Assembly (NCBI GenBank): GCA_048940445.1
Contig: JBHLON010000054.1
Location: forward strand, 1 to 15,681
Direction of reading: 5' to 3'
Length of the DNA: 15,681 nt
Origin: Promethearchaeota archaeon
GTDB taxonomy: Archaea; Asgardarchaeota; Lokiarchaeia; Sigyniarchaeales; SOKP01
Shown here: piece by piece, positions 246 to 13,414 of the stretch
How positions within the stretch are numbered: the stretch's first letter is position 1
Layout: each line of letters begins with the position of its first letter
Program-made: the position numbers and the translations under genes
Notes under the pieces: model-generated
Databases searched by the model: none
Told to the model about the DNA's origin: nothing
The model's input: only the letters and a program-made list of their open reading frames with translations

Positions 246-2168
246 TTGAAAAGTTTTAAATTTAAAGGATTAATGATATGTATATTTCTATTGATTACTT
301 CAATTCCATTAATCCAATCATTTAATTTAGATTTTTCAAAATCTCAAAATAATTCAAACCCAAGAATAGCAGCAAATGGATTTATTTTCATAAATGGAAA
401 TAATCAATTAAACAATACAGCAACATCTGGGGACGGAACAATTGGAAATCCCTACATCATAGAAAATCAAGTTATAAATTCATCTGGAGAAGGAGTCCCA
501 TCCATAACAATTTTAAATACTGATGCCTACTTTGAAATTAGGAATTTAACGGTTCTAGGCCCTGATTTTTTTACCCAATTCATTATTTTACTTCATAATG
601 TTTCTCATGGAACGATAAAGGATTCTAATATTGAAGATTTTTCACGTGATAACATAGGTATATTCCTTAATGAGTCATCGAATAATGTCATACAAAATAA
701 TAAATTATATCATGTTGCGGTGGGTATTTATTTAAATGAAGAATCTCATGATAATCAAATCCTCAATAATGCCATTTTATATTCTCATTATTCTAATGGA
801 ATAATAGTTTTAGATTCAGATGATAATTTGGTAGAAAATAATACAATAATGTTATGTGATTATGATCAGACCGCTGGTAATTTTCAGGGAATATTTGTAT
901 ATGAATCACATAATATAACATTAAAAGGGAATGTTATAAAACATAATTATGGTGATAATTCGCTAGCAATAAGATTGTCCAATTCAAATTATTCTAAAAT
1001 TATAGATAATAAAGTATATAATAATACAGCTTTAGGCTTCACACCATCTTCAATCGGCATTTATTTAGATAGATCACATTTTACGTTGATATCTGGTAAT
1101 TTAATAAATTATACAAATTCGAATGTTGATGGCGCAAATTGTATAGGAATTGGAACATTTTTTTCAATTAATAATACAATTATAAATAATAAAATAAATA
1201 ATACTATAGCCACAGGATCTTCCGCTCTTTCATATGGTATTAGATTAGATACATCGAATTATACAGATATTGCATATAATGTTATAACTAATAATAATGA
1301 TTATGGGATTTATCTCTTCAATTCACACGAAAACAAAAATACGACATGGAATCAAATATATAATCATATACAAAATTATTTTGAAACTGGAGGATCATCA
1401 GGGAACGTTCCAATGGATAATGATTATCATTCATTTAAGATCTTAACTAATGCTGCCGTATCAGCTATGAGTGGAAATATTACCACAAATTTCACTTTTA
1501 CAATTACATATACTGATTATGGAGATATTTCCCCATCCTTCGTCAGAGTAGTTATTGACGGAGTTTTAAATTCCATGCAAATTAAAAATTCAAGTGATTA
1601 TGATTACACTGATGGTGTTGATTTCATATATTCAACTACATTATCCTACGGATCACACGAATTTCATTTTGAAGCAAGTAATGGATCTGATTCTGAACGA
1701 ATTCCTAGAATTTGGGAAAATCTTGGACCCACTGTATCAAATACACCTCCCTTATTGAGTAATGGAAATGTAACACCTCTGGTAGGCAATGAATCGACTA
1801 CATATTTCACGTTTACAGTAAATTATCTCGATATAGATAATGATCAACCAACTTACATTCGAGTGTATATTAATTCAACACCATTTAATATGATAAAACA
1901 AGGAATCGATAATGATTATACTGATGGTTGCACTTATACCTATACGACAAATCTAACAGTTGGAAATTATACTTATTACTTTACCGCTCATGACGGGACT
2001 TATCTAGTTATTAATCCAGAACCAGGAGTTTACCAAGGCCCTTATGTCTCAAAAAGAGAATCGTCAACCACAACTCCATCCATACCTGGTTTTGAGATTT
2101 CAATTATTATTATGGGATTAATTTCCTCACTATTATTAATTCGAAAAAAACTCAAAATCCACGCTTAA
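246..2168 (+). CDS. Cell-surface glycoprotein: signal peptide, NosD/CASH right-handed parallel beta-helix, two tandem ~100-aa beta-rich repeats, PGF-CTERM/Loki-CTERM-like sorting tail
   Basis: TTG start and hydrophobic N-terminus. Has a G-x-GT-xx-NPYIIEN lead-in, then repeated GI-x-L-xx-S-xx-N-x-I-xx-N-x-I units and many N-x-S/T sequons. The C-terminus is STTTPSIPGF + TM helix + RKK. Confidence 0.85.
   Translation: MKSFKFKGLMICIFLLITSIPLIQSFNLDFSKSQNNSNPRIAANGFIFINGNNQLNNTATSGDGTIGNPYIIENQVINSSGEGVPSITILNTDAYFEIRNLTVLGPDFFTQFIILLHNVSHGTIKDSNIEDFSRDNIGIFLNESSNNVIQNNKLYHVAVGIYLNEESHDNQILNNAILYSHYSNGIIVLDSDDNLVENNTIMLCDYDQTAGNFQGIFVYESHNITLKGNVIKHNYGDNSLAIRLSNSNYSKIIDNKVYNNTALGFTPSSIGIYLDRSHFTLISGNLINYTNSNVDGANCIGIGTFFSINNTIINNKINNTIATGSSALSYGIRLDTSNYTDIAYNVITNNNDYGIYLFNSHENKNTTWNQIYNHIQNYFETGGSSGNVPMDNDYHSFKILTNAAVSAMSGNITTNFTFTITYTDYGDISPSFVRVVIDGVLNSMQIKNSSDYDYTDGVDFIYSTTLSYGSHEFHFEASNGSDSERIPRIWENLGPTVSNTPPLLSNGNVTPLVGNESTTYFTFTVNYLDIDNDQPTYIRVYINSTPFNMIKQGIDNDYTDGCTYTYTTNLTVGNYTYYFTAHDGTYLVINPEPGVYQGPYVSKRESSTTTPSIPGFEISIIIMGLISSLLLIRKKLKIHA
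1443..2050 (+). repeat. Intragenic tandem domain duplication (about 1443-1736 and 1755-2050)
   Basis: LTNAAVSAMSGNITTNFTFTITYTDY...RVVI...DYDYTDG...Y.T.L..G...F.A..G...GP.VS aligns with LSNGNVTPLVGNESTTYFTFTVNYLDI...RVYI...DNDYTDG...Y.T.L..G...F.A..G...GP.VS. Confidence 0.85.
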
Positions 2169-2365: not shown

Positions 2366-2738
2366 ATGGAAAATCGCAAAATTATTGGTTTAGTTCTTAT
2401 TATAATAGGAATTGGATTCACTCTAAGGTTAATCTTCGGTTTAAGTTATCTTGGACCAGTAATAGGATTACCGTGTATTATTGGTGGAATTTTTTTTTTA
2501 AATGGGTAAATCAAAAACTAGCGTAGATAGGAAAAAAGTACGCGGAGTTGGGATAGGCATGGTTATTGTTGGGTTGATCTGCTTTATTGGTGGTATTGCA
2601 TCTTGGGGTTTTCTTAACTGAACAGGAAGCTTGGCGGCAATCTGGTCTTTAATCGCTATAATTATCGGTATAATTCTTGTGGTGACTGGATTAGTAACGA
2701 TAATCGCTATGAATATAGCCATAAGAAGCTCAAAATAA
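2366..2738 (+). pseudogene. Disrupted small multi-pass membrane protein (~4 TM) with a frameshift at the T10 tract (2490-2499) and an in-frame TGA (2619-2621)
   Basis: ATG 2366 gives MENRKIIGLVLIIIGIGFTLRLIFGLSYLGPVIGLPCIIGGIFFLNG* (TAA 2507-2509). The +1 frame from 2502 gives MGKSKTSVDRKKVRGVGIGMVIVGLICFIGGIASWGFLN*TGSLAAIWSLIAIIIGIILVVTGLVTIIAMNIAIRSSK* (TAA 2736-2738). Confidence 0.7.
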
Positions 2739-2790
2739 TCAATATTTAAATTTTAAGAGACACAAAATTCAAGCTCTTTTAAATTTCGTC

Positions 2791-2810
2791 CCAATTTCCC
2801 TTGAAATTGG
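2791..2810. other. Perfect 8-bp inverted repeat (possible hairpin/terminator between convergent genes)
   Basis: CCAATTTC-CCTT-GAAATTGG. Confidence 0.5.
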
Positions 2811-2814
2811 ATTG

Positions 2815-2854
2815 GAAATGTAAATTCAGAGTTTGATTTCAATGAAAATTTCAT
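2815..2854 (+). repeat. 40-bp dyad-containing intergenic repeat, copy 1
   Basis: GAAATGTAAATTCAGAGTTTGATTTCAATGAAAATTTCAT; ungapped, 35/40 identical to copy 2 and 31/40 to copy 3. Confidence 0.9.
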
Positions 2855-2903
2855 TAAGATTAAATTAAAAATTTTAAAAAAAGATTTTAAAAGATTTTGA
2901 AAA

Positions 2904-3350
2904 TTATTTTGCTAATTTTATTCCAAACTCTTTACATTTGGGCAAATCTTCATCAATAATAGGTCCCTTCATTCCCCCAACTTTTATAGATAAACCAGGA
3001 CTCATTTTTTTCATATTTGGAATGATCTTAGCAATTTGGGCTTCCATCTTCCTTGTAACTTTTTCAAAATCTTTTCCTATATAAGTATCGAAGACAGCAA
3101 AATTATTGGCTTTTAATGGAGCATTAGCTAGTTTCTTGATGAATTTCTTTACTGACCTAATATGAGATCCAATTTGATTTGGGGAACCAATGAGTATCAA
3201 ATCATAAGTTTCGTCTCTTTCAAGATTAATTTCCTTGACATTTTCAATTGAGACAGTATTTCCTTCCACTGTTTTTAAACCCTCACCAATTAATTCTGCT
3301 ACTTTTTTAGTATTTCCATATTTAGTATCATAACCTATAAGTATTTTCAT
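2904..3350 (-). CDS. Flavodoxin-family protein
   Basis: Has the FMN phosphate loop YDTKYGNTKKVA, plus LILIGSP and FAVFDT. The start is set at ATG 3350 because the ORF-track GTG at 3362 is part of a GAAGGTG ribosome-binding site. Confidence 0.9.
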   Translation of the reverse strand: MKILIGYDTKYGNTKKVAELIGEGLKTVEGNTVSIENVKEINLERDETYDLILIGSPNQIGSHIRSVKKFIKKLANAPLKANNFAVFDTYIGKDFEKVTRKMEAQIAKIIPNMKKMSPGLSIKVGGMKGPIIDEDLPKCKEFGIKLAK

Positions 3351-3471
3351 ATAGATATACACCTTCTTTTCTTATAGTTAAATCTTGACAAGTTTGAATT
3401 AATATTCTGTTGGTTAAAACTTTTTTTATTTTATTATTGTCCTTCTTAAGACATTTTTTCATAAAAGGTCC

Positions 3472-3511
3472 GAAAGGTAAATTCAAAGTCTGAGTTCAAT
3501 GAAAATTCCAT
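3472..3511 (+). repeat. 40-bp dyad-containing intergenic repeat, copy 2
   Basis: GAAAGGTAAATTCAAAGTCTGAGTTCAATGAAAATTCCAT; 32/40 identical to copy 3. Confidence 0.9.
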
Positions 3512-3561
3512 ATAAATATTAAATAAAGAAAAGATTCCGCATTGTGATCCATAGTCTAAAA

Positions 3562-4167
3562 TTAATTGACATTTTTGGGTTTCAATAAATTTTCAGAAGT
3601 TAAGATCGTTGAATTCCGAAAATATTTAAGACTTATTAAGATTAAAAATACAGCAATAATTTCAATTCCCAAATAAACATGCAATTCAAGACCAGGTGGA
3701 ATAATTCCATGTTCCCATAGTTCATAATGGAATAAACCTCGTGTAAATCTAACACTATATTCTCCGGGTTTCATTTGAAAGGTCGTCTTCATTGAATACT
3801 CTGCAACCGTAAAGTTAACTGTGAAGTTGTATACAATATTAGTTGCTAGATGTGTAAATAAAACTGACTCAGAACCATATAAAGGATAATAATTAAATGC
3901 TTTAACATCATATTTGTTCAAGATAAGATCATTTTGAGGAAGACTAAAACTATCCCTATACAACCAGGGCTCGAAAAACCATTCTTTTGATGTCCATATT
4001 TTTTCGGTGTTAATATAAGGAACAAGAAAAAATGGTAAAATAATAAAAGAGATTCCAAAAATTGCAAAAACAAAACCAATAATTTTTTTTTTATTCAATC
4101 TTCTTAACTTTTGGCTAAGGATGAGCATCTTTTTTGGCAAAATCATGGTTCTGCTTTTATTCTTCAA
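3562..4167 (-). CDS. Hypothetical membrane protein (N- and C-terminal TM helices flanking a ~110-aa beta-rich loop)
   Basis: 201-aa ORF with TM segments IIGFVFAIFGISFIILPFFLV and LHVYLGIEIIAVFLILISL. Start uncertain (TTG 4167, ATG 4146 or ATG 4128). Confidence 0.7.
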   Translation of the reverse strand: MKNKSRTMILPKKMLILSQKLRRLNKKKIIGFVFAIFGISFIILPFFLVPYINTEKIWTSKEWFFEPWLYRDSFSLPQNDLILNKYDVKAFNYYPLYGSESVLFTHLATNIVYNFTVNFTVAEYSMKTTFQMKPGEYSVRFTRGLFHYELWEHGIIPPGLELHVYLGIEIIAVFLILISLKYFRNSTILTSENLLKPKNVN

Positions 4168-4304
4168 AATTAAATATCAATTACAATCAGATTATATTTT
4201 AATTGGATTTAATTGTACAAAATAAAATTAAGAAGAAGTAATATATAAAACTTCTATAGAGCAATAATTTTTTTAAAAATAAATTAGGTATTTCATATAC
4301 ACGA

Positions 4305-4344
4305 AAAAGGTAAATTCAGAATCTGATTTCACTAAAAACTCCTT
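4305..4344 (+). repeat. 40-bp dyad-containing intergenic repeat, copy 3
   Basis: AAAAGGTAAATTCAGAATCTGATTTCACTAAAAACTCCTT; perfect core dyad TCAGA-A-TCTGA. Confidence 0.85.
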
Positions 4345-4369
4345 TGAAAAATCAATGGAATACATTTAG

Positions 4370-4398
4370 AGGAAAATATTCCTTAGGAGAATATACCT
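4370..4398. promoter_or_regulatory. Tandem quasi-palindromic 14-mers (possible operator) upstream of the acyl-CoA ligase
   Basis: AGGAAAATATTCCT-T-AGGAGAATATACCT, 15-bp period, about 100 bp upstream of ATG 4500. Confidence 0.35.
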
Positions 4399-4499
4399 AA
4401 ATATAATTCAGATTGAATGCAGAGAGAAAAATTGAAAACAAAATACTTAAAAATTTAAAGATTAAATAATGCATAAACAAATTGAGATAAGGATTTATA

Positions 4500-6182
4500 A
4501 TGTCGTGGGAAGAATTTGAAACTCATCCCCATACCATAAATGGGGTTATAGAGAAATGGGCTAAAAAAAAGGCAGAGAAATTCGCATTTATTTTTTATGA
4601 CACAGAAAAGAAATATACTTTCAAAGAGTTTTATGATGCCATAACCATTATGGCATTTAAGCTTTACAATCTAGGATTTCGAAAAGGAGACATAATCGCA
4701 ACGTCCTTACCATTTCTGTATGAGCATATAGTTTTAGGATATGCTTGTGCAAAATTAGGGGTTATGTGGTGCCCCATGGATTTGCGGTTAAAACCTCCAG
4801 AAATTATGAGAAACCTAAGTTTGTTAAAAGAAAAATGCAAAATGTATTGTCATTTAGGTAAGACTACAGCTGCAAATTTTGGGATGATTGGTGCTGCAGT
4901 TATGAAAAATAATCCTTGGTTAGAATATGTAGTTCAATTTAGCACCCCAGATGATAAATATAGGAATGGGATTATTCCCGGATTTCAACTATTAAAAGAA
5001 GCTCAAGATGAATTTAAAGAAACAGAGAAAGGTTCAGAAAATATGAGAAATTTTATAGCAGAATGTGATAAAGTGGGGCAAGATGATCCAATCTTAATCA
5101 TATTTACCACAGGATCAACCGGATATCCAAAACCAGCCATGTTAACAAATAAGGGAATCACTTGTCAAAATATGTGTTTAGCAAAGGGACTTAAATGTAA
5201 AGAAGATGATATCATGCTGGTTAATTTACCACCTTCACACGTTGGAGGAACAACAGAACAATTTATGACTCCCATATTTATAGGAGGAAGCGTAGTTGTA
5301 CTACACATTTTCGACCCTGCTAAAACTCTAGATGCAATTCAAAAGTATAAAGTTACTATTATGGGCCAAATTCCTGCTTTATTTGTGATGGAATGGAGGC
5401 TCCCAAATTTTCATGGATATAATCTGAATTCTTTGAAATATGCAATCGCAGCCGGTCAACCAGTCGATAAGCCATTTTTAGAACGATTAACTAAAATGGC
5501 TCCAAATATGTTTACAGGGTTAGGTTTAACAGAAACATCAGGATTTTGTTCTTATACACCAACTGATCTCCCTTTAGATGAATTTACTGGTACTTTAGGC
5601 TTTGATTTTCCAATATATCCCATGTCGATTCGAAAACCTATGAATGAAGATGGAAGCGCTGGCAAGGATTTACCAAAAGGAGAGATTGGAGAGATTTGTT
5701 ATAAAGGACCTCAAACGTTTTTAGGGTATTTCGGTAATGAAGAAGCGACTCGGAAAACACTGTCATCAGATGGATATCTCTATACAGGAGATATGGGATA
5801 TATTGATGAAAAAGGACTACATCTTGCAGGTAGAAGGAAATTTCTTATCAAGCCGAAAGGTTATCAAGTGTTTCCTCCTGAGGTTGAGGCTCATATCGCA
5901 GAATTACCCCAAATAGAGTTTGTAGGAGTGATTGGAGCTAAGCATAATGTATTCACTGAAGGTGTTGTTGCTTATATTAAATTAAAGGAAGGTCAAGTAC
6001 TCACAGAACAAGAAGTTTTACAACATTGTAAAGGAATGGCATCTTATAAGAGACCGTCATTAGTTGTATTCTTAAAAGAGTTTCCTCTTAATCGAATAGC
6101 AAAGACTGATTATGTGGCATTACAAGAAAGAGTTGATAAAGATATTGAAGCTGCAAGAGCCAAAGGCGGCTGGGATAGTTAA
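4500..6182 (+). CDS. AMP-dependent acyl-CoA synthetase (class I adenylate-forming enzyme)
   Basis: P-loop IFTTGSTGYPK, GLGLTET, YTGDMG, GRRK..IK..GYQVFPPEVE, and a C-terminal A10 lysine in PLNRIAKTD. Confidence 0.95.
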   Translation: MSWEEFETHPHTINGVIEKWAKKKAEKFAFIFYDTEKKYTFKEFYDAITIMAFKLYNLGFRKGDIIATSLPFLYEHIVLGYACAKLGVMWCPMDLRLKPPEIMRNLSLLKEKCKMYCHLGKTTAANFGMIGAAVMKNNPWLEYVVQFSTPDDKYRNGIIPGFQLLKEAQDEFKETEKGSENMRNFIAECDKVGQDDPILIIFTTGSTGYPKPAMLTNKGITCQNMCLAKGLKCKEDDIMLVNLPPSHVGGTTEQFMTPIFIGGSVVVLHIFDPAKTLDAIQKYKVTIMGQIPALFVMEWRLPNFHGYNLNSLKYAIAAGQPVDKPFLERLTKMAPNMFTGLGLTETSGFCSYTPTDLPLDEFTGTLGFDFPIYPMSIRKPMNEDGSAGKDLPKGEIGEICYKGPQTFLGYFGNEEATRKTLSSDGYLYTGDMGYIDEKGLHLAGRRKFLIKPKGYQVFPPEVEAHIAELPQIEFVGVIGAKHNVFTEGVVAYIKLKEGQVLTEQEVLQHCKGMASYKRPSLVVFLKEFPLNRIAKTDYVALQERVDKDIEAARAKGGWDS

Positions 6183-9892: not shown

Positions 9893-12004
9893 TTAGTTAA
9901 AGAAAGAATTCATAGAGAGATTTAACATCTTTTTTCTAATTTCTACCTTTTGTTTAATAATTTCTTTAATCATGTGAGATATCTCTTTTCTTTTATTCAT
10001 ATCTTTTGGAAGAGGTAATAATACTTCCATTATACGATTTCCAATCGTCGCAATAGTCCCTTGTACAAAGGTGATTGCTTGAATTTGTTTTTGAACAATA
10101 TCCAAATTTAGTAAATATAGAACTAAAAATGAGTCGATATGTTCTTTATTTGGGAGAATTTTAATCTGAAATATATGGCTCTGTATAATGATTTTGGTAT
10201 CTAATTCTGTGATATAGGCAGTATTACCGATTAGATTAGGACCACCGTCTTTTACTAAAATTATATCTCCAGTTTCAATATTCTGTCGTTTTCTATAAAG
10301 TTCAAATACTTCCTTGCTAGTTTTTTTATGAGAATCTAGGTTTACTTCCCAATTATTTATATCACTAGTGCGTATAAAAGGAATATCCCCTAATCCATAC
10401 ACACTTGATCCTATTTCATCACCCCTGGGCAGATATCCATTTTTACTAGTAAAAATAATGCCTTTTGCTACTAAATCTCTTACTGAATCTAAAATAATAT
10501 TTTGATTATTTTCGAGATTCTTAAGTGTTTTTTCCACCCCTGAATAATAAGTAGGAATAAAAATATTATTTTTTACTTGACTAAAATTAATCTTAAATAC
10601 TTTTTGCTCTTTAGAATAGTTAAAATCCTCACAAGTGACTAATCTATCATTCAAATCAACCAATTCATCATTTATTATGGGTTTACCTTTGTCATCTAAC
10701 ATCTTGGACCCATCCTTATGTAATTTGTGTAGAGTTTTGCCATCCTTATCATGACCAACATGATCAACAATAGCAAAGTCAATTTTATAATCTAGAGGAA
10801 CAGTTTTTAATTTTTGAAAGAACAAAATACTTGTTTTATTACATGTATAGGGCTGGAATGTGTTCTGATCTAATGAAATTATACCTAATATTTTACCATT
10901 GGAATTTAAATACTCCCAAATATACCTATCTGAAGGATTACCGAATATGCCCTCTGGTAAAATTATACCCAATTTCCCTCCATCTTTAAGTAATTGAACA
11001 CATCTTTCGATAAACAAGATTTGTGGTGGTTGTTGTTTTAGAATTTTGTTTACCATTTCCCATTTGTTTTTAATATTTTTCCAGAGGTGACCAAGTTGAT
11101 AATTGGTTAAAATAGATTTTTCATCAATAGGGATCTTAGATCCAAAAGGAGGGTTGGTTATAATACAATTAAAAAAATCAGGTTTTATATGGTTTCTTGC
11201 TCGGTCTTGGTAATTGTTAAAATCTAAAGAATCTTCACAGAAGATTTTTGATTTTTCTCCACTCAAAATAGCTAAATATAGCTTGCATAATTTGACTAAA
11301 AAGGAATCTTTTTCTATTCCATATAGATTTGTTATAACTTCTAATTTTTTTTGTTCTTTTGTTTCTTTATTTTCCTTAAATTTATTTTCAATTTTTGACC
11401 ATAGTACATCCTTAGTTTCAAGTAAAAAACCTCCATGTCCACAAGCAGGATCTAAGATTCGGTCATTAATATCTGGATTTAAATAATTTACCATAAATTT
11501 GATCACATTTGATGGAGTAAAAAATTGTCCGCCCTCGTCCTTTAATACCTTACTTACGAAGATTTCAAAGGCATCACTTAAAATGTCTCTAGACGAAATT
11601 AAAAGAGAAATCTTTTGTAGTTCCTTAACAACTAAAAATATCAGTTCCTTGCTTAAATTAATTTTTTCATCTTCATCAAATATCTCGTGATATTTTTCCT
11701 TAACATTCTTAATAAAAAAATCTTTTATTCTTGACGATAAAAGATGTGCTTTCTCTCCCTGCCTAATGCAGAACTCAACAGATTCTTCAGGAGTTTTGTT
11801 TTTTTCATCGACAATTTTACACAATAACAAGTTTATGATTTCTTTAGATCTTGATCTTGTATCAGTGTGAGTATGTTTTAGTTTAGCATAAAAATGTTGA
11901 TTTATTTGAGTGAAAATTTGTTTCAAATTTGATACTTTTATCAAATCTTTTTTTTTTAGTGCCTTTGGGCTTTCCCCGACATAATCAGTTATTTTAGTTG
12001 TCAA
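9893..12004 (-). CDS. N6-adenine DNA methyltransferase (type I HsdM-like, gamma class) fused to a C-terminal HsdS-like target-recognition domain
   Basis: Motif X GQFFTP, motif I DPACGHGGF, motif IV NPPF, then LGIILPEG. The C-terminal IPFIRTSDI...GDIILVKDG..IGNTAYI...LLPLP + helix is typical of one HsdS TRD. TTG start. Confidence 0.9.
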   Translation of the reverse strand: MTTKITDYVGESPKALKKKDLIKVSNLKQIFTQINQHFYAKLKHTHTDTRSRSKEIINLLLCKIVDEKNKTPEESVEFCIRQGEKAHLLSSRIKDFFIKNVKEKYHEIFDEDEKINLSKELIFLVVKELQKISLLISSRDILSDAFEIFVSKVLKDEGGQFFTPSNVIKFMVNYLNPDINDRILDPACGHGGFLLETKDVLWSKIENKFKENKETKEQKKLEVITNLYGIEKDSFLVKLCKLYLAILSGEKSKIFCEDSLDFNNYQDRARNHIKPDFFNCIITNPPFGSKIPIDEKSILTNYQLGHLWKNIKNKWEMVNKILKQQPPQILFIERCVQLLKDGGKLGIILPEGIFGNPSDRYIWEYLNSNGKILGIISLDQNTFQPYTCNKTSILFFQKLKTVPLDYKIDFAIVDHVGHDKDGKTLHKLHKDGSKMLDDKGKPIINDELVDLNDRLVTCEDFNYSKEQKVFKINFSQVKNNIFIPTYYSGVEKTLKNLENNQNIILDSVRDLVAKGIIFTSKNGYLPRGDEIGSSVYGLGDIPFIRTSDINNWEVNLDSHKKTSKEVFELYRKRQNIETGDIILVKDGGPNLIGNTAYITELDTKIIIQSHIFQIKILPNKEHIDSFLVLYLLNLDIVQKQIQAITFVQGTIATIGNRIMEVLLPLPKDMNKRKEISHMIKEIIKQKVEIRKKMLNLSMNSFFN

Positions 12005-13075: not shown

Positions 13076-13111
13076 CGAAAGAAATTTTAAATACTATGTG
13101 CCTTTAGGTGA
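13076..13111 (+). promoter_or_regulatory. Putative BRE/TATA and ribosome-binding site of alba
   Basis: CGAAAGAAA followed by TTTTAAATA, and AGGTGA 6 nt before the GTG at 13118. Confidence 0.45.
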
Positions 13112-13117
13112 TGGAAA

Positions 13118-13414
13118 GTGGCCAAGAAAAAGAAAGTTGAAGATGATACAGAAAAAGTCTTTATCGGTAAAAAAAAATCAATGAGTTATGTCATGGCAGC
13201 AATGGTAATTCTAAATGATAGACCCGTAAAAATTCTTGCTCGCGGGAGATCAATATCCAGAGCAGTAGATGTGTCTGAAATTCTCATTAACAAATTTATA
13301 CCTGGAAGTACTTATGGAGAAATAAAAATTGATACTGAAACAATAAGCAATGATGATAATACTCAAACAAACGTATCATCTATCGAAATTGAAATTATTC
13401 CACCCAAAAAATAA
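13118..13414 (+). CDS. albA: DNA/RNA-binding protein Alba (Sac10b family)
   Basis: Motifs VFIGKK..MSYV, ARGRSISRAVDVSE, IKIDTE and NVSSIEIEI. Confidence 0.95.
   Translation: MAKKKKVEDDTEKVFIGKKKSMSYVMAAMVILNDRPVKILARGRSISRAVDVSEILINKFIPGSTYGEIKIDTETISNDDNTQTNVSSIEIEIIPPKK

Follow-up and report, generated by a model that had tools for sequence, protein, structure and literature searches.

The question raised by this locus is why three copies of one short direct repeat stand between unrelated genes in an Asgard archaeon. The window, by which we mean the whole stretch of DNA analysed, comprises 15,681 nucleotides of a Promethearchaeota archaeon (contig JBHLON010000054.1, assembly GCA_048940445.1; genome G000 below). 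An earlier note on its sequence had proposed that the repeats may serve recombination in a system of gene capture or shuffling not described before, whose recombinase acts in trans. In our best explanation, to which we assign a probability of about 0.75, the repeat is the att site of an undescribed family of integrase elements, and cut-down copies of these elements form cassette arrays. The window is, in that explanation, an integrase-less array of one-gene units.

The array in the window and its surroundings

Re-alignment recovered the three ungapped, same-strand copies described earlier, starting at 2815, 3472 and 4305, with copy-to-copy identities of 35, 31 and 32 of 40 and spacings of 657 and 833 bp. 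An HMM scan of the window retrieved these copies only (E<=3e-12), the next match having an E-value of 0.19, in agreement with the earlier finding of no full copy in the other intergenic regions. A profile search of the genome returned 15 matches scoring at least 38, whereas the reversed genome gave no score above 13.5; the repeat is therefore not a product of chance. The 15 copies are grouped in same-strand clusters. The description as a 40-mer in three copies was real but too narrow, as conservation extends to about position 47 and a fourth site lies approximately 645 bp before the window, at C36:13051. Contig C36 ends with window bases 1-77 (G000:C36:13697-13773, an exact 77-bp overlap), so that the real array has four sites.

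The features of the array are as follows.

246..2168, + strand: secreted beta-helix protein, cargo of the upstream unit (PF05048 and PF13229)
2366..2741, + strand: broken membrane-protein gene of the upstream unit (poly-T frameshift at 2490-2499; TGA codon in frame at 2619-2621)
2751..2814, + strand: right-end remnant of the parent element, 64 bp kept (colinear alignment with the end of the L112 integrase element; right-end HMM 53.8 bits)
2815..2861, + strand: site copy 1, junction of right end and left end (profile search)
2819..2826, + strand: probable strand-exchange region, site positions 5-12, placed by sequence comparison
2904..3350, - strand: cargo flavodoxin, 148 aa (PF12724, E 4.9e-11)
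3472..3518, + strand: site copy 2, left end only, right-end remnant absent (profile search)
3562..4146, - strand: cargo membrane protein, about 194 aa (ORF; alternative TTG start at 4167)
4305..4351, + strand: site copy 3, which closes the array; left end only (profile search)
4500..6182, + strand: backbone acyl-CoA ligase bounding the array (PF00501)

Each of the two intervals within the window holds one minus-strand ORF, and the pairing of two unrelated genes, a flavodoxin and a membrane protein, is as the earlier note had it. The stop codons lie 49 and 50 bp from a copy. One start lies 121 bp from a copy, within the 120-140 bp claimed for both, and the other 137-158 bp. The membrane protein has no Pfam or NCBIfam match, and its homologues are absent from the genome and from the relatives' loci compared. 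The upstream unit spans the C36 site to 2815. Its beta-helix protein belongs to a family that often adjoins sites and forms the largest site-associated cluster, with one member inside the complete element L230. The remnant at 2751..2814 corresponds to promoter-side DNA upstream of a regulator-integrase operon; immediately to the left of the site it contains a dyad.

The four-site array sits between a thiolase and the acyl-CoA ligase. These two genes, divergently oriented, adjoin directly in the relatives G139 and G007, which have no array, and the DNA upstream of the orthologous ligase in six relatives contains no site. Further along the window, 9893-12004 encodes a 703-aa N6-methyltransferase of restriction-modification type, with 28.6% GC among metabolic genes of 35% GC and no site nearby.

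The site family, its integrase element and the giant genes

The motif was found in 96 of the 134 genomes of one Promethearchaeia (Loki) family, f1, and in none of the 19 genomes of sister families of the order. It is present in 36/41 genomes of the genus of G000 and 52/54 of a second genus. After de-duplication by flanking sequence, more than 400 sites remained; some loci represent one genome under two handles (L105/L062, L112/L317), and counts of site pairs are still not independent. Single genomes contain up to 18 (closed bin108) and 40 sites (G043), grouped in arrays at 5-10 or more loci per genome. Adjacent sites point in the same direction in 188 pairs and in opposite directions in three (n=191), and an inverted right-end remnant 47 bp from a full site (L108:6514-6561) is one of very few inverted cases. 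The median spacing is 1.2 kb (10-90% range 0.67-3.1 kb), which fits the earlier exclusion of CRISPR, and 117 of 161 site intervals contain one ORF. The copies thus cluster as repeat-gene-repeat arrays across the genome and its relatives, as the earlier note had proposed to check. Genes beside sites face either way (163 vs 164 on the left, 159 vs 172 on the right) at widely spread distances; the minus-strand orientation and the 49- and 50-bp stop-codon distances hold in the window and are not general. The 154 ORFs adjoining sites fall into 118 clusters.

Site positions 7-36 are 89-99% conserved in mostly non-coding copies, except for position 16. The values by codon position (0.047, 0.075 and 0.048) have no third-position excess, and protein-coding constraint was rejected as the cause; the conservation points to continuing selection on the DNA itself. 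In four loci (L009, L021, L030 and L038), genes including an inositol-phosphate-synthase-like one have their stop codon inside site positions 7-9. Single-strand folding gave z-scores from +1.1 to -1.9, with no consistent fold and no improvement over shuffles. The best internal dyad is centred on position 17; partial symmetry is found only about positions 5-10, and a weak 11-6-11 reading is possible. The site had no match in Rfam and no exact match in viral contigs. A Chloroflexi match to a short pattern contained no full site and was dropped as chance.

Approximately one third of the sites carry extra conserved DNA on their left. Followed outward, this DNA turns into the promoter and first part of an operon that points away from the site and encodes a 172-aa ribbon-helix-helix-like regulator (NikA-like, E 8e-4) and a 302-aa tyrosine integrase. 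In L112 the two genes are placed as follows.

4363-4878, + strand: regulator
4878-5783, + strand: integrase

The integrase matches PF00589 (E 1e-22), conserves residues R151, K175, H242, R245, H268 and Y278, and has a XerA-like fold in structure comparison, with about 20% identity to XerA. Judged by its sequence, it is neither XerA nor IntI. The host gene xerA itself stands, at L092:7399-10685, in the order trxB-like, xerA, cdc6/orc1-like, which is kept across the genus (neighbours named by sequence appearance). The integrase family occurs in 19 of the 134 f1 genomes and in none of the 19 sister-family genomes, the same range as the site. In 13 of 15 elements (integrase at least 69% identical), the site core lies 82-83 bp upstream of the regulator start; the core is lost in one of the remaining two and unreadable in the other. 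The earlier note had suggested looking for a recombinase beside any array; in relatives, this operon provides a candidate for the recombinase that would act in trans. The cognate integrase is absent from G000, the closed bin108 (18 sites) and G043 (40 sites), which encode only XerA.

Complete site-to-site units were found in L230 (5.1 kb), L244 (6.3 kb), L315 (6.9 kb) and L317 (9.3 kb). A full element runs from the left end through a toxin tip or other cargo, a replication-type gene, the integrase and the regulator to the right end, from which integrase and regulator both read inward. The replication gene is putative; in L416 it is a D5-type primase-helicase. No conjugation genes were seen in the elements. 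Tandem integrase elements are joined at a site in L244, L313 and L314. Those of L314 (sites at G078:C31:2307-2336 and 13105-13134) have integrases 69-70% identical and a variant site at their ends. A pattern search of 154 genomes retrieved this variant at no other place, and it brought up no parallel arrays for other variants. Across integrase elements, site positions 5-12 are nearly invariant and position 13 onward is variable, and a rare C at position 8 is common to both ends of L313 and of L315. The dyads on both sides of the site may be accessory sites for the regulator.

At other sites, the regulator-end remnants are nested, in a gradient from 1.7 kb to zero. In the window, 64 bp of this end survive at copy 1 and nothing at copies 2 and 3. 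About 42% of sites have no right-end remnant, and about two thirds of junctions are one-ended.

One reading frame of the site is stop-free and reads K/M-VNSESDFNENS. This frame stays open for at least 100 codons after 17 sites, and the other two frames after none. In six ORFs of a giant family, the site is located at the join of stalk and tip, where homologous ORFs diverge. The family, which includes open frames of 11,000-14,800 codons, has members in f1 only (L334-L347 and L355; e.g. G097:C3, G088:C47 and G072:C21). The stalk part examined had no Pfam match. Homologous N-terminal parts carry different C-terminal tips, which often start with a peptidase S24-like domain. In one tip the terminal domain is a toxin-type deaminase (Pfam E 0.005; Atlas 0.89-0.90), whereas another gave an EndoU/BECR-like lead only; the toxin-domain matches fall below curated cut-offs. 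LRR or other small genes come after the tips and are candidate immunity genes. One small family, starting approximately MKxxRxIxIKxPxLRxIRxNLR, stands behind many different tips (L313:11125-12459, L364, L370, L373 and L378) and is a candidate immunity or chaperone family. L315 and L317 have the order stalk, site, tip, small gene, replication gene, integrase, regulator, site and start-less second tip, as expected if an insertion had displaced the old tip. This sequence evidence suggests that the full element exchanges toxic tips of giant proteins. A use of the site by all giant genes was rejected, as 17 of 20 giant-gene ends have none; these genes are therefore one target and not the rule.

Movement of units and competing explanations

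Among pairs of sites with a homologous flank, 45 share the downstream flank only, 29 the upstream flank only and one both, although these are not independent observations. G017 and G024 have in common a two-gene unit that is 94.8% identical over the whole distance between its sites and stands between unrelated flanks, and L016 and L122 form a filled/empty pair that differs by a 631-bp insertion. The site-plus-flavodoxin unit of the window is 84-85% identical in G118 and G106, which belong to another genus, and stands there behind a different gene and with the right-hand site missing. Related flavodoxins also occur in site-free chromosomal settings. Gene order breaks at the repeat between relatives, which is where the gene-capture proposal had placed the breakpoints. 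The outcomes that the earlier note had named as refuting its proposal did not occur, since copies are clustered and co-oriented, gene order is broken and neighbouring genes have no fixed orientation or distance; the proposal is thus supported. Comparison of these genomes shows a fixed-distance link of site and integrase, nested remnants, shuffled flanks and the movement of units from one genome to another.

Within the site, positions 1-4 travel with the upstream flank and positions 37-47 with the downstream flank, while position 16 is linked to neither. Half-site breakpoints spread over positions 2-28, mostly 8-16. Because they are scattered, and because the best dyad is centred on position 17, comparison places the exact crossover in a region and does not pin the cut position. 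Current activity is likewise something we infer from comparison, since G000, bin108 and G043 have XerA and not the cognate integrase, and circles were absent from four metagenome runs. The circular junctions that the earlier note had suggested looking for did not appear: no circle or precise excision was seen in the assembled contigs of these runs, and the joints that resembled one were rejected, having at most 37 bp on the short side and matching the repeat only. One low-depth contig of run X8 joins 2904 to 4267, with both cargo genes deleted and endpoints outside the sites.

In the mechanism that we propose, the integrase would exchange strands within site positions ~4-12. Every insertion would recreate a usable site, so that elements would pile up head to tail, and deletions would remove the integrase and leave one-gene units that retain the left end. 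An integrase arriving in trans could excise a unit at its left end and at the site that follows, or at a short sequence resembling one, and the excised unit could re-insert at other sites. A subfamily of the giant toxin-like genes would be one natural target, where an in-frame insertion would supply a new tip and leave the old tip behind the right end. A bolder extension, which we hold only tentatively and at somewhat less than even odds, is an active cassette system independent of integrons: a tip-swapping integrase would have been co-opted, through its double-stranded site and one-ended capture, to take any chromosomal gene, with multi-locus arrays built across an entire Asgard family and a roaming helper in trans.

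The most serious competitor, in our opinion unlikely, regards the sites as leftovers of the insertion and deletion of integrase elements, with ordinary illegitimate recombination joining the cargo genes. Their spread would then be due to homologous recombination or transformation, with the 45-110 bp repeat as anchor, and not to the integrase. It would account for the scattered breakpoints, the nested remnants, the genomes rich in sites and devoid of integrase, the independence of position 16 from both flanks and the one contig that has lost both cargo genes through a deletion with endpoints away from the sites. However, mere leftovers do not agree with the 89-99% conservation of positions 7-36 (except 16) in mostly non-coding copies with no third-codon-position excess, nor with units that start at the site in different genera. 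A considerably less probable proposal is that the host XerA moves units as XerCD moves pdif modules, making the element integrase unnecessary. XerA is the sole PF00589 match in G000, G041 and G043 and the only tyrosine recombinase in most carriers, and the 11-6-11 reading of the site, weak as it is, would suit it. Against this, sister families possess XerA but not the site, xerA neighbourhoods have no site except for one array 7 kb away, and the sites are direct and not alternating. Moreover, the site is the physical end of the operon of a different integrase and varies with it.

Both alternatives named in the earlier note fared worse. The internal dyads, and the ribbon-helix-helix-like protein encoded beside the full site, could suggest an operator, a terminator or a structured RNA common to the genes of a regulon. 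We consider this highly improbable, as the adjoining genes have either orientation, lie at widely spread distances and form 118 clusters among 154 ORFs, folding is no better than in shuffles, Rfam gave no match and some sites lie inside ORFs; the shuffling of flanks largely refutes the reading. Hardly any weight is left either for a dispersed MITE or REP, or for the ends of an IS91-, IS110-, IS200- or IS607-type transposon. One-ended units with variable right ends do recall rolling-circle capture, yet the sites are strictly co-oriented and have no terminal inverted repeats, IS110 transposase occurs in 0/24 genomes of the genus, and G000 encodes no Y1 transposase and no serine recombinase (resolvase and large serine types were searched). 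The fixed link to a tyrosine integrase operon weakens this reading further. IS91-like transposase pseudogenes on L097 (G016:C6) and L099 (G023:C90) were set aside, as their composition does not fit the host, they have no site and they are probably bin contaminants.

[quoted passage not shown] The pair of integrase and site is open to laboratory testing and might serve as a compact insertion tool.

Relation to known systems

We found no description of the site or the element in the literature, of which our coverage was incomplete; papers on Asgard mobile elements describe other elements. Among systems in which tyrosine-recombinase sites bound single genes, pdif sites are 28-bp XerC/XerD sites in alternating orientation, and the R64 shufflon works by inversion and exchanges a protein C-terminus in frame. 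The resemblance extends to the in-frame C-terminus exchange of the shufflon. Unlike both, the sites here are direct repeats (188 same vs 3 opposite).

Integrons and CALINs have been reported in Asgard archaea, in screens based on attC (PMC9668308), to which the present system would be invisible. The integrase is read away from the site, as in integrons, and same-direction arrays of mostly one-gene units are formed. Integrase-less arrays outnumber integrase-bearing ones, and units are common to several genomes, as with integrons and CALINs. Nevertheless, this system is not an integron. The RYYYAAC...GTTRRRY ends of attC, whose absence had been pointed out, have no match around any site of the window on either strand; no hairpin is found, and it is sequence that is conserved at the site. 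Cargo genes face both ways equally often, whereas integron cassettes are co-oriented with the array. The integrase scores 53.7 against TIGR02249 (cut-off 265) and is missing the IntI-specific insertion, having none relative to XerA.

The giant genes resemble polymorphic toxin loci with orphan tip and immunity cassettes, systems described as rare in archaea (PMC3482391), and they point to a family of toxin-like proteins of 11,000-15,000 aa in this domain. Both have a constant stalk and C-terminal tips that vary; the tips come after a peptidase-like domain, include deaminase- or nuclease-like ones and are each followed by a small or LRR gene, and displaced tips lie downstream (PMC3482391). In the text consulted, the survey makes no mention of 'integrase' (PMC3482391), whereas in the present genes an att site forms the join, with an integrase element between the new and the old tip. 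Asgard plasmid-like elements such as Yucahu-i (PMC11529989) are similar in size (a few kb to 11 kb) and in having a tyrosine integrase, DNA-binding proteins, a helicase and a short AT-rich att motif. They differ in lineage and motif, and cassette arrays are not described there, nor is the word 'cassette' used (PMC11529989).

The closest known system is the accretion of cis-mobilizable elements (CIMEs), with the tandem accretion of ICEs and IMEs related to ICESt1, in which decayed elements keep their att sites and accrete in tandem (PMC5704250). Here, the nested remnants indicate derivation from a tyrosine-integrase element by loss of integration genes, and tandem insertion at a resident att site is found in L244, L313 and L314. 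CIMEs keep both attL and attR; here, a recognisable right end is kept at 118 junctions and not at 286. CIMEs are stacks of a few elements at one gene end (PMC5704250), whereas the present arrays consist of ~1-kb, mostly one-gene units; a genome has them at 5-10 or more loci and can contain up to 40 sites. Further differences from CIMEs and ICEs are that two thirds of the junctions are one-ended, that conjugation genes did not appear and that the elements live in an Asgard archaeon.
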